DNA from: Acidobacteriota bacterium
Lineage (GTDB): Bacteria > Acidobacteriota > UBA6911 > RPQK01 > JAJDTT01
Assembly (NCBI GenBank): GCA_965209055.1
Contig: OZ242374.1
Coordinates: 5,728,001 to 5,792,000 of the forward strand
Direction of reading: 5' to 3'
Length of the DNA stretch: 64,000 bases
Part shown: piece after piece, positions 60,610 through 63,629 of the stretch
How the letters are laid out: each line of letters opens with the position of its first letter
How positions within the stretch are numbered: the stretch's first letter is position 1
Position numbers and translations under genes: made by a program
Notes under the pieces: generated by a model
Told to the model about the DNA's origin: nothing
The model's input: only the letters and a program-made list of their open reading frames with translations
The model's database searches: none

Positions 60610-60651
60610 AAAGTCCCGCGCGGCACCGGGACCGATGCCGCGCGGGACTTT
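60610..60651 (-). terminator. Intrinsic terminator hairpin downstream of comEA (possibly bidirectional)
   Basis: AAAGTCCCGCGCGGCA / TGCCGCGCGGGACTTT perfect 16-bp inverted repeat with T runs on both strands. Confidence 0.75.
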
Positions 60652-60725: not shown

Positions 60726-61040
60726 CTACGGGCGCTTCGCCTGTTCCTTGGATGGAGTGGGGGTGGCCTTGACCATGATCCGGTCCCTGAGCCTCAGAAA
60801 AGTTTTCTCACCGATGCCCCGGACGTTCATCAGGTCTTCAATCCGCTTGAAGGCTCCGTTTTTCTCCCGGAACGCCACGATTCGCCTGGCGATTGCCGGT
60901 CCGACGCCGGGGAGAGCGTCCAACTCTTCCACCGTCGCCTGATTCAGATCCAGTTTGTCCGCAGCCGCCACATCCGGGCACCAGAGCCAGGGCATGGCCA
61001 TCAGCAAGGTCGAGAACAACAGAATCTTTCGCATGTGCAC
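60726..61040 (-). CDS. comEA: ComEA-family helix-hairpin-helix DNA-binding protein
   Basis: AAGGAGG RBS; signal peptide; LNQATVEELDALPGVGPAIARRIV..R...G.F..IEDL..VRGIG. Confidence 0.88.
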   Translation of the reverse strand: MHMRKILLFSTLLMAMPWLWCPDVAAADKLDLNQATVEELDALPGVGPAIARRIVAFREKNGAFKRIEDLMNVRGIGEKTFLRLRDRIMVKATPTPSKEQAKRP

Positions 61041-61065
61041 CTCCTTATGGGTTGTTATTTCGTTT

Positions 61066-62315
61066 GGGAATTACAAAGTGCAGTTGACACTTTACAGTTC
61101 TGGCGCCACGCTCAGCCTACTGGCCCACGTTCCGGCGCCCAGGGCAAAATTCCCGGCCCTGAGAATGTTCAGGGCCGCGTTGTGGTCCCTGTCCATTCTG
61201 AGATCGCAGGCTGAGGAGCGATACGTCTCGCTCCTCCCAGGTCGATTCCTGACGCCACACCGGTGACAGTCCCGCGACGTGTATTTCGGGTCCACTTCCA
61301 CGAACTCCCGCCCGGCCCACTCTGCCTTGTACTGGAGTTGATTGCGGAGAATGCCCCAGGATTGAGTCGCAATCTCACGATTCAGGCCCTTCTTGTTCAA
61401 ACCCTTCGTGGTCATACCTTTGACGTTCAGTTTCTCGACGGCAATCCGGCCATGCTCCCGGATAATTCCGGTGGTATGCCGATGGCACACATTCCGGTTC
61501 CTGACTTTCTCCCGATAGCGGAGTCGGGCCAGTTGACGGACCCGCTTCTTTCGACGGTTCGACCCCTTCTTGCTTCTTGCGATCGCTCTCTGCTGCTGCC
61601 GGACCTCTGGCCAGTCTCTCCGGTTCCGTTCGATCCGTTCCCCAGTGGACATAACCGCCCGCTTGCGAACTCCAAGATCAATGCCCACCGCAGACGGGCA
61701 TTCCGGCAACGGTTCCTTCTCCACCTCGTAGACCAGATCGACGTAAACCCGATTCGGCTTGCGGACGATCCGCAACGCTTTCAGTTCACCTTCGGGCAGG
61801 GGTCGAGCAGGAAACAACCGAAGCGTGGGGAATCCCTTGATCCGGATCGCGAATCCGCACTTGCGCTTCTTCACCATCGTCGTCTTCGGGTCCACAAAGT
61901 CGATGGTCTCCATCCGCGCGATGGGCCGGAACCGGGGATGCCCCGGCTTCTCCCCCGCCTTGCAGCGACGAAAGAACGCTTGGTAAACCCGGTCCAATCG
62001 AAACAACATTCCCCTTTCGGCCTTGACAGCAATGGACCCCAGTCCTTCCGGGTCGGCCTTGCGCTTCCGGGTCAATCCCTTCATCTGGTCATACAGGGAG
62101 ACGCTTTTCCTGTCCTTCTCCCAGGCGTTCTTTCGCTCCTCCAGGGCGGAGTTGTAGAGACGGTTCAAGACGGACCGAATCCAGTCGAGACGCCGCACCC
62201 CATTCTTGGAGAGTTTCGCCCGGCATTGGAAAGTTGCGTGAGAAATCATTAGATGGATGAGTACTCAATTGGCATGACATTGGTCAACGCACGTCAATTA
62301 GTCTTTATAATTCCC
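61066..62315 (-). mobile_element. Non-autonomous 1250-bp TIR element carrying only tnpB (IS1595-like ends, 8-bp TSD)
   Basis: Ends GGGAATTACAAAGTGCAGTTGAC (61066-61088) and reverse complement GGGAATTATAAAGACTAATTGAC (62293-62315), 18/23 identical. Flanked by direct repeat TTTCGTTT at 61058-61065 and 62316-62323. Confidence 0.85.
61092..62249 (-). CDS. tnpB: RNA-guided endonuclease TnpB family protein
   Basis: LYNSALEER, AFFRR...KPGHPRF, RuvC-I GIDLG, GSNRRKK, RuvC-II AVEKL, YKAEWAG, TSRDCHRCG, RuvC-III DRDHNAALNI. Confidence 0.95.
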   Translation of the reverse strand: MISHATFQCRAKLSKNGVRRLDWIRSVLNRLYNSALEERKNAWEKDRKSVSLYDQMKGLTRKRKADPEGLGSIAVKAERGMLFRLDRVYQAFFRRCKAGEKPGHPRFRPIARMETIDFVDPKTTMVKKRKCGFAIRIKGFPTLRLFPARPLPEGELKALRIVRKPNRVYVDLVYEVEKEPLPECPSAVGIDLGVRKRAVMSTGERIERNRRDWPEVRQQQRAIARSKKGSNRRKKRVRQLARLRYREKVRNRNVCHRHTTGIIREHGRIAVEKLNVKGMTTKGLNKKGLNREIATQSWGILRNQLQYKAEWAGREFVEVDPKYTSRDCHRCGVRNRPGRSETYRSSACDLRMDRDHNAALNILRAGNFALGAGTWASRLSVAPEL

Positions 62316-62375
62316 TTTCGTTTCCTATCTGAGCCTAACGTCCCGGGTGGAAAAAACGCGAAGCGGAGCGGCGGC

Positions 62376-63629
62376 TCACCCGGCAACTGGTGATTGGACG
62401 CCGTTGCAGAGATAGTCGAAAATTTCGTAGTTCCGGGCTCCCTGGGCCGCCCGGGACTCGTACTCGCCGCTCAGCGGTTCCGAGAGCAGCATGGGGACCA
62501 TCACCTCGTGGCGTCCGCCGTGGGACCGCAGGGGTTCGTTCAGGACGCTGAGATCGTGGTCGGCGGGGGTCTTCCCGATGACGGCGCCGGCGTCCGCCAT
62601 CACGACCAGATCGCCGATGCGGTCGGCCGGCAAATCCAGTTCCCTCGACGCCGCAGTGCGATCGTAGACTTCGTCGATGCCGGGCAGCCGGCGGATCCAA
62701 GCAGCCACGGAAGTGGTCTCCGCGGGTTCGGCCACGTGCACCATGACCGCCGAACCCAGGGATCCGTGATGAACGACGTAGGGGTCCGTGATGGGACAGA
62801 CCACTCGGTTCCCCTCTCCGAAACGGTCTCGCAGCAGAGATTCCAGATAAACGACGTTAGGGCTCCCGCCGGGTCCGGTTTTGGCGTTCATGCCGTGGTC
62901 AGCCGTCACTCCAACCCGGGCGCCGGTCTCCAGCAGCGCACCGATCTCCCGGTCCAGCGCCTGGTGAAAATCGAGCGACTGGTCAGACTCGGGAGGAAAT
63001 TTGTGCTGCATGTAGTCGGTCAGGGACAGAAAGAGAAAATCGGCCAGTTTCCTCTGCACGAGGCGGACACCGGCCGCCAGCACGAAGAGGCTGGCGCCGG
63101 CGCTGTAGATCTCCGGCTGCGGCCTGCCCACCAGGTCCTCCAGGTTCCCAATGCCGTGGGTCCCGACGGTGGCGGCCGCGGCCCGCTCCGATGAGAAGGC
63201 GATTCCATCCAGGTCCTTCGTCAGCAGGTCCCGAAGTTTTTCCTTGGCCGTCACCATCGCCACCTTCCTGCCGGCACGGGACGCTGCCGCCAGAATCGTG
63301 TCGCATCGGACATAGCGGGACGAGTTCATCATCAGCTCCCGGCCGGTCCGGGGATCGAGGAAGAAGTTGCCGCTGATCCCGGTGACGGAAGGAGGAACCC
63401 CGGAGACGATGCAGGCATTGTTCACGTTGGTGAAGGAGGGGAGGGCGCCCCGGACCACGGTCTCGAATCCGGCTTCAGCCAGACCGTCCAAATGGGGCAT
63501 GCGGCCGCGATTCCGGGAAACCTTCAGGTACTCGGGGCCGCATCCGTCGATGCAGACCACCGCCAGCGGCTTGGCCGGAGGCCGGTATTGCACTCCGTTG
63601 ACCCGGAAAGGCGTCGTGCTGATCCGCAT
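62376..63629 (-). CDS. phnA: Phosphonoacetate hydrolase
   Basis: VCIDGC, PSFTNVNN, TAKEKLR, TDYMQHK, TADHGMNAK, PITDPYVVHHG, LRSHGG. Confidence 0.92.
   Translation of the reverse strand: MRISTTPFRVNGVQYRPPAKPLAVVCIDGCGPEYLKVSRNRGRMPHLDGLAEAGFETVVRGALPSFTNVNNACIVSGVPPSVTGISGNFFLDPRTGRELMMNSSRYVRCDTILAAASRAGRKVAMVTAKEKLRDLLTKDLDGIAFSSERAAAATVGTHGIGNLEDLVGRPQPEIYSAGASLFVLAAGVRLVQRKLADFLFLSLTDYMQHKFPPESDQSLDFHQALDREIGALLETGARVGVTADHGMNAKTGPGGSPNVVYLESLLRDRFGEGNRVVCPITDPYVVHHGSLGSAVMVHVAEPAETTSVAAWIRRLPGIDEVYDRTAASRELDLPADRIGDLVVMADAGAVIGKTPADHDLSVLNEPLRSHGGRHEVMVPMLLSEPLSGEYESRAAQGARNYEIFDYLCNGVQSPVAG

Follow-up and report, generated by a model that had tools for sequence, protein, structure and literature searches.

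A tnpB gene as sole cargo of a transposase-less IS1595-type element in Acidobacteriota, with a predicted omega-RNA scaffold that includes the right terminal inverted repeat

In a 64,000-nucleotide stretch of the genome of an Acidobacteriota bacterium (assembly GCA_965209055.1, contig OZ242374.1, positions 5,728,001 to 5,792,000; hereafter the window, with positions counted from its first letter), an element of 1,250 bp lies on the minus strand at 61066-62315 and carries tnpB as its sole gene. The intact tnpB open reading frame (ORF) runs from 62249 to 61092 on that strand, has its stop codon at 61094-61092, and encodes a protein of 385 amino acids; 26 nt separate the stop from the element end at 61066. 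The element is bounded by a left terminal inverted repeat (TIR; 62293-62315), which begins GGGAATTATA, and a right TIR (61066-61088), the two being 78% complementary over 23 nt. Outside both ends stand identical 8-mers that form a perfect 8-bp target-site duplication (left copy at 62316-62323, right copy at 61058-61065). Comparison with related copies makes it fairly probable that the minus-strand segment from 61161 to 61066 is the guide-proximal part of an omega-RNA scaffold of about 96 nt, with an ISDra2-like TnpB as the sole cargo of a transposase-less IS1595-type element and with a guide derived from the flank.

The insertion site was found in seven other genomes of the genus in a search with the neighboring HHH_3 gene and its leader. 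In one of these (G148) the site is empty, with the left flank, a single exact 8-mer and the right flank and nothing between them, and the site of a second (G088) is likewise empty, its single 8-mer carrying one mismatch. The duplication is therefore real, because two genomes of the same genus keep the empty site with one copy of the 8-mer. A copy of the element that is 94% identical (L030) sits at a different site with a different 8-bp duplication, and past mobility is evident from the tnpB copies more generally, which occupy different sites with different duplications.

The ends of the element were compared with those of transposase-bearing elements in the same genomes. Matches to DDE_Tnp_IS1595 (PF12762) numbered eight in the present genome (G000), 17 in G260, and one, holding a stop, in G148. 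Ends were called clear when the TIR matched at 17/20 positions or more and the duplication at 7/8 or more; 12 of 23 PF12762 loci qualified, and 11 of those 12 begin with GGGGATTATA and have AT-rich 8-bp duplications. TIRs of the GGGGATTATA type with perfect, AT-rich 8-bp duplications were seen for 11 copies in G260 and three in G000, where the PF12762-containing elements measure 4,799, 7,465, and 3,119 bp (TIRs 23-24/24, a perfect duplication each). The tip motif of the left TIR is common to the tnpB elements and the PF12762-bearing elements of G260 and G000, and the TIR of the L036-type tnpB elements is near-identical to the G260 IS1595 TIR over about 24 nt. Among the tnpB loci themselves, a TIR pair together with a duplication of at least 7/8 was present in 26 of the 38 examined, one of which (L054) has only 10/16 TIR matches.

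Because its ends match those of transposase-bearing IS1595 elements in the same genomes, the window element is, by its sequence, a transposase-less IS1595-type element. It is non-autonomous, since the tnpB ORF takes up 1,158 of the 1,250 bp and leaves no room for a transposase gene, and it was presumably moved in trans by an IS1595 transposase. Elements of the IS200/IS605 and IS607 families have neither TIR nor duplication, and this one has a 23-nt TIR and an 8-bp duplication. The tip motif and the 8-bp duplication presumably fit the ISNwi1 group of ISfinder; a literature search on this point gave no useful result. IS1595 elements with passenger genes in the ISNwi1 group are reportedly treated in ISfinder and by Siguier and colleagues in 2009. 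These resemble the window element in their GGGGATTATA-type TIR tips and AT-rich 8-bp duplications, whereas the window element has no internal transposase, carries tnpB as cargo, and has a right TIR that would encode RNA structure. A further IS1595-type shell in the present genome (G000:C1:6066994-6068365, L196; 1,372 bp, TIR 24/24, perfect duplication) has as its sole sizeable ORF a 322-amino-acid trypsin-family protease (PF00089, E 1.3e-14).

Domain searches placed both OrfB_IS605 (PF01385, E 1.2e-17) and Cas12f1-like_TNB (PF07282, E 1.2e-23) on the window TnpB, each above its cut-off. The NCBIfam model for guided_TnpB (NF040570) scored 197 bits (cut-off 100), while IS200_TnpB (NF038281) and the IS607-specific model NF038280 scored 159 and 121 bits, under their cut-offs of 425 and 350. 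An alignment with ISDra2 TnpB covers residues 30-372 (E 1.9e-29). The RuvC triad D191/E272/D355 aligns with D191/E278/D361 of ISDra2 and is invariant in 10/10 copies (alignment A1), all with intact ORFs. The ISDra2 residues in contact with the pseudoknot and the unpaired -1A of its RNA, H262 and K263, align to H256 and R257, the former invariant in 10/10 copies and the latter nearly so. From sequence, this protein is a candidate for RNA-guided cleavage dependent on a target-adjacent motif (TAM).

Relatives at 75-81% protein identity comprise 10 copies in three genomes of the genus, and in a sample of the phylum 7 of 401 genomes had at least one match with E <= 1e-30. When species genomes were scanned, 36 loci were returned, from Acidobacteriota assemblies, one labelled Aminicenantes (94% identity, at a different site), Bryobacterales (53%), Binatia (52%), an alphaproteobacterium (46%), and SAR202 (45%). 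From a metagenome scan 80 loci were kept, of which two (L077 and L078, 45% identity) have IS1595-type ends; the patterns used in that scan were too general, and under a strict TIR and duplication test one of the 74 loci examined, out of 80, passed.

Read on the minus strand, the predicted scaffold begins with an analogue of stem 1 (61140-61161), found by RNAalifold, in which 61161-61156 would pair with 61145-61140; three of its six pairs change on both sides and 98-100% of alignment cells pair. Its loop holds the putative 5' strand of a pseudoknot (61154-61149). An analogue of stems 2/3 follows (61102-61139), with 61139-61134 and 61107-61102 as the outer helix and inner helices inside it; in a 20-sequence alignment (A4) 9 of its 14 pairs change on both sides and 99% of cells pair. 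After a linker (61101-61097) comes the last hairpin (61072-61096), the analogue of stem 4, whose 5' arm holds the tnpB stop codon and whose loop and 3' arm are right-TIR sequence. The last six bases of the TIR (61066-61071) would form the 3' strand of the pseudoknot, and the A of the flank at 61065 is possibly an unpaired base before the guide, by comparison with -1A of ISDra2. An alternative upstream pairing of the stem-1 5' arm, which belongs to the minimum-energy fold of the window sequence, is lost in subfamilies with a changed arm and was rejected.

An original prediction, made from the window alone, had described a GC-rich structured stretch, a hairpin built from the TIR, a stop codon 26 nt from the end, and host flank following from 61065. 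All of these are present in the sequence: the GC-rich stretch runs from 61145 to 61098 on the minus strand, and the hairpin has arms at 61096-61088 and 61080-61072, which ViennaRNA extends to 10 pairs with a 5-nt loop. The hairpin had also been said to be valid on the sense strand only, which was confirmed; several pairs in it and in the pseudoknot are G.U, so both can form on that strand alone. By itself the window hairpin is weakly better than its shuffles (z -1.9), and the surrounding 261-nt region folds at z -4.57, with 0/200 shuffles as good. When 27 distinct 3' tails were folded singly, a hairpin of the same geometry was found in every one, starting 5-7 nt past a conserved RGAAC and ending 6-8 nt before the element end, and 21 of the 27 reached z <= -1.9. 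Subfamilies differ in the sequence of the inner stem, which prevents an alignment of the last hairpin across them, and their loop sequences are not conserved either. A scan of 60900-62450 for terminators and sigma-70 promoters found none, so that the last hairpin is not a typical intrinsic terminator.

Covariation was counted in two alignments. The first (A2) consisted of the last 230 nt of 18 sequences, for which RNAalifold returned two well-supported helices; 94.6% of its cells were paired against 30-48% in slid controls, and 12 pairs changed on both sides against 3-6, a count that 0/500 shuffles reached. In A4 the corresponding values were 97.0% against 33-50% and 14 pairs against 2-6, again with 0/500 shuffles reaching the count. 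The loop of stem 1 can pair with the final six or seven bases of the element and varies with the tip: GGGAAU with AUUCCC in the window type, GGGGUU with AGCCCC in most copies, GGGGAU with AUCCCC in the mini-elements described below, and GGGACU with AGUCCC in the Binatia copy, where the loop matches the copy's own right end and not its left. A loop that matches the complement of the right end and not of the left is recorded for L056. For the pseudoknot alone, counted on a model-made alignment of 41 distinct rows whose model was built without the pseudoknot, 95.9% of 246 cells pair and nine cells are double changes, against at most one when slid. Among the distinct rows, one covarying position changes from G:C to A:U in three, and the other from U.G to A:U in six and to C:G in two. 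We place high confidence in the predicted scaffold.

A covariance model (R1), which the original prediction had proposed to build from homologous 3' ends, recovered scaffolds that include copies without tnpB. Its four matches in G000 are the two tnpB genes and two tnpB-less elements. One of the latter (G000:C1:4815243-4815499; L165:144-400) is a 257-bp mini-element with the TIR type of the window element, a perfect 8-bp duplication and no tnpB, and its left junction also reads G|A. The other (G000:C1:1427848-1427953; L169, L197) scored 81 bits and was outside the training set; a candidate left TIR matches at 16/23 positions by eye, and its duplication is decayed. In both, the scaffold is complete, its stems are compensated, and all six pairs of the pseudoknot can form. 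Since tnpB-less elements keep the scaffold with its stems compensated, the structure is, on this comparison, not a by-product of coding. Across the genus, R1 gave 43 matches in six of nine genomes, and the three genomes without a scaffold also lack a tnpB match. Stand-alone omega-RNAs, which were reportedly described by Altae-Tran and colleagues in 2021, resemble the two tnpB-less scaffolds of G000; those of G000 lie inside IS1595-type TIRs and are miniature inverted-repeat-like. Weaker matches (47 and 44 bits) lie a short way upstream of the tnpB copies of Bryobacterales, on the other strand (L059:1296-1404 and L064:1395-1503, minus strand), and may represent a second, degenerate element in inverted orientation.

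The arrangement of the predicted parts follows a known RNA. In passages of Nakagawa et al. 2023 (PMC10097598), the 116-nt core of the ISDra2 omega-RNA consists of stem 1, whose loop is the 5' strand of the pseudoknot, stems 2/3, stem 4, the 3' strand of the pseudoknot at -6 to -2, an unpaired -1A, and the guide. As far as those passages and the ISDra2 structures (PDB 8H1J, 8EXA, 8BF8) describe it, the window scaffold has its parts in the same order. ISDra2 is an IS200/IS605 element with a Y1 TnpA, no TIR and no duplication, and its TAM is the TnpA target TTGAT; in the window element, by contrast, the last hairpin and the pseudoknot strand would be a DDE-type TIR, the scaffold has about 96 rather than 116 nt, and the candidate TAM ends in G (or GA). 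The central idea of the original prediction, an omega-RNA scaffold that shares sequence with the 3' end of tnpB and has the right TIR as its last hairpin, is supported by this topology together with the covarying stems and the TIR-tip pseudoknot. The claim that the TIR supplies what the right end supplies in IS605 holds on the same comparative evidence, and the overall interpretation given there is partly supported.

The junctions of independent insertions bear on where the guide may begin and what the nuclease may recognize. The set comprised 28 insertions, the 26 with TIR and duplication plus L077 and L078. The base to the left of the duplication (-1) is G in 27/28, against 12/28 at the mirrored right position (Fisher 1.8e-5), and the first duplicated base is A in 26/28, against 12/28 (Fisher 1.1e-4). 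Eighteen insertions have GA at the left junction alone, none has TC at the right alone, and seven have both (binomial 7.6e-6). Transposase-bearing IS1595 copies have G at -1 in 3/12 and lack the orientation bias. A one-sided bias would not be expected from a DDE synaptic complex with two-fold symmetry, and the bias persists in subfamilies in which the left and right TIRs hardly differ. The duplications are AT-rich and have no fixed motif at positions 4-8, the constrained positions being -1 and 1. A one-sided bias is expected of a TAM read at the empty site, because the occupied junction offers ...CCC instead. The G|A bias thus looks like a TAM footprint, with the GG of the left flank directly 5' of the window duplication (62324-62325) as the candidate TAM.

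As the scaffold would end at the TIR tip, the guide should consist of the duplication followed by flank; the predicted guide region spans 61046-61065 on the minus strand, begins in the right copy of the duplication and overlaps the 5' leader of the HHH_3 gene. The original prediction had put forward the same guide as one of two options. The oriented G|A junction favors it, with the reservation that the first duplicated A may, by analogy, still belong to the scaffold as an unpaired base, in which case the guide would start after it. In passages of PMC10711439, IS607 takes a flank base into its scaffold, a parallel for this role of the first A. The further suggestion that such a guide would allow discrimination between self and non-self is strengthened by the contrast between the left flank (...GG) and the TIR (...CCC), with G at -1 in 27 of the 28 insertions. 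We have moderate confidence in a flank-derived guide that works with a left-flank TAM.

The mechanism that we propose would use the right TIR twice, as a DNA site for an IS1595 DDE transposase that acts in trans and as part of an RNA scaffold, because the last hairpin and the pseudoknot strand are right-TIR sequence. Transcription would run outward and exit the element, giving a guide made up of the right-hand duplication copy and the host flank beyond it. The ribonucleoprotein (RNP) would then recognize the unoccupied site, where the target follows the left flank ...GG, and not the occupied one, where it follows the TIR ...CCC. A cut empty allele would be repaired from the occupied copy, by which the element would be kept or spread. 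We infer RNA production, the exact guide start, the TAM, cleavage, homing, and mobilization in trans from the comparisons above. A wider reading, conceivable but somewhat on the doubtful side, is that TnpB and its RNA form a keep-or-spread device for a DDE cut-and-paste family, in which the TIR tip is a pseudoknot strand and the TAM (...GG, then A) mirrors the repeat tip (...CCC, then A); one RNP might then tell empty from filled sites by the base left of the duplication, and the mini-elements would borrow the nuclease in trans.

The conserved structure could instead have another purpose, such as transposase binding on the DNA, mRNA stability, or control of tnpB translation, with the G|A bias being the target preference of the mobilizing transposase. 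The loop of stem 1 looks like the TIR tip and might act as a transposase site inside the element, and the true mobilizer may be missing from the small set of transposase-bearing control copies. However, the G.U pairs restrict the hairpin and the pseudoknot to the sense strand, the order of parts is that of the ISDra2 RNA, and the mini-elements keep a compensated scaffold in the absence of tnpB. The scanned region holds no terminator-like site, and a symmetric DDE complex would not be expected to produce a bias that is one-sided even between near-identical TIRs. We consider this explanation unlikely.

It is less likely still, and in our view improbable, that the scaffold is real but takes in the whole 8-bp duplication, which would also be the empty-site TAM, so that the guide would begin after it, as has been proposed for Fanzor1 and Fanzor2*. 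Many TnpB TAMs are AT-rich, as the duplications are here, which favors such a reading, and in passages of Yoon et al. 2023 (PMC10711439) the RNAs reach about 15 nt beyond the duplication, with TIR and duplication in the scaffold. Against it, positions 4-8 hold no fixed motif, and constraint falls on positions -1 and 1. Moreover, the same TAM and target would be present at the occupied right junction, so that the element would target its own locus, and only the base left of the duplication separates empty from occupied sites. The second option of the original prediction, a scaffold that ends within the hairpin loop and a guide that is the TIR itself, fixed in every copy, is very improbable. Beyond a likeness of the loop TCAA to IS608-type cleavage sites, nothing speaks for it, and the loop sequence varies between subfamilies. 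It fails because its would-be guide bases are paired in the scaffold, as the 3' arm of the hairpin in all 27 tails and, for the last six bases, in the pseudoknot; a guide that matches the TIR would also match the element's own ends.

Several observations weigh against a flank-guided omega-RNA in an IS1595-type element, and they concern the RNA, the protein, and the mobilizer. Six of the 27 tails, mostly decayed copies, fold no better than their shuffles. The homolog check on the hairpin suggested in the original prediction gave a divided answer: its place is conserved, but its outer four pairs, although conserved, show no covariation. Covariation in the pseudoknot is confined to two positions, a count that 82 of 500 shuffles reach, and when slid by -1 the pseudoknot is still 82.5% paired because of its G and C runs. 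Rfam returned 11 matches at E <= 10, all far below gathering scores, and assigned no family. The RNA search covered four RNA libraries among 22 runs, each with under a fifth of the words, at a likeness of at least 92%; it yielded assembled contigs of relatives that are 92-95% similar, without ends or strand, and none for the locus itself. In one contig of 3,609 nt, recovered from two runs in the same study, the final ~270 nt of a related tnpB are joined to 3.3 kb of a different flank. Because these contigs are without ends, strand, or level, and because DNA carry-over is possible, they were not counted as evidence.

On the protein side, the window TnpB is short of one zinc-finger cysteine, the third, which is replaced by serine (C345S; 61215-61217, minus strand), a change private to the window copy among the 10 and not shared by L030, which keeps the cysteine. 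The control for the junction bias is small, consisting of 12 copies from one genome, and in 12 of the 38 tnpB loci, which are truncated, decayed, or rearranged, no pair of TIR and duplication was detectable, so these were excluded from the junction counts. An IS1595 transposase is only a candidate mobilizer of the tnpB elements, and G148 has four near-identical tnpB copies and seven scaffold matches, yet its single PF12762 match holds a stop. In passages of a 2026 review (PMC13565253), DDE excision is said to leave a break already, which makes the benefit of TnpB less obvious.

The element lies between a type I phosphodiesterase-family gene on one side and a small HHH_3 (ComEA-like) gene on the other. 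The latter (60726-61040, minus strand) is downstream, with its start codon 25 nt past the element end, and read-through from the element would span its leader and ribosome-binding site, the former overlapping the predicted guide. Directly after the HHH_3 gene is an inverted repeat at 60610-60651 (20 nt, 95% complementary), which is probably the terminator of that gene; its Rfam look-alikes are weak, all far below threshold. In G260 (L160/L171), a tnpB of another subfamily is inserted at the position orthologous to window 61058-61066, directly after the same left flank and oriented alike. That copy is internally deleted (649 bp) and has its own perfect duplication; the two insertions at one position could mean that the site is a hot spot or that it was targeted repeatedly. 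In a relative represented by RNA-library contig X15, yet another TIR adjoins the HHH_3 gene.

The association of TnpB with DDE transposons has been published. Altae-Tran et al. 2023 (PMC10691335) describe, in passages of that paper, six DDE-associated TnpB branches (DDE-1 to DDE-6) with inverted terminal repeats, tnpB ends no more than 250 bp from the end of the transposon, and solo tnpB genes with the same ends that were probably moved in trans. The window element resembles these in its inverted repeats and in the closeness of the tnpB 3' end to the transposon end (26 nt here), whereas those passages contain no scaffold structure, TIR-tip pseudoknot, or junction bias. IS1595 occurs 0 times in the main text of PMC10691335, to which the comparison was confined. 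For DDE-type TnpB elements, the 2026 review (PMC13565253) names ISL2, IS630, and IS1031 in the passages concerned. Fanzor1 and Fanzor2* RNAs and IS607 TnpB RNAs, as passages of PMC10711439 present them, take one or more flank bases into the scaffold, and the TIR is part of the Fanzor scaffold, as proposed here. Those Fanzor elements are eukaryotic or viral and have short, fixed duplications, whereas the window element is bacterial, with a variable duplication of 8 bp in which only the first base seems constrained. Literature searches turned up nothing on TnpB of the IS1595 type, as judged from titles and the opening of abstracts, and nothing on the RNA or TAM of prokaryotic DDE-type TnpB elements.

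With the association of TnpB and DDE transposons already known, the present locus adds mechanism and detail rather than a new principle. It offers a compact candidate nuclease of 385 amino acids with a scaffold of about 96 nt and possibly a G-ending TAM, and a single DNA segment that would be under two constraints, as a transposase binding site and as an RNA scaffold. TnpB is thought to benefit IS605 and IS607 elements because their excision is scarless and cutting of the restored site returns the element. Such a benefit is harder to explain for a DDE cut-and-paste element whose 8-bp duplication varies. If the G|A bias is a TAM footprint, the logic of IS605 and IS607 would extend to DDE elements through a simple rule for occupied versus empty sites, and TnpB-driven homing would, if this is true, not be tied to scarless Y1 or serine transposition.

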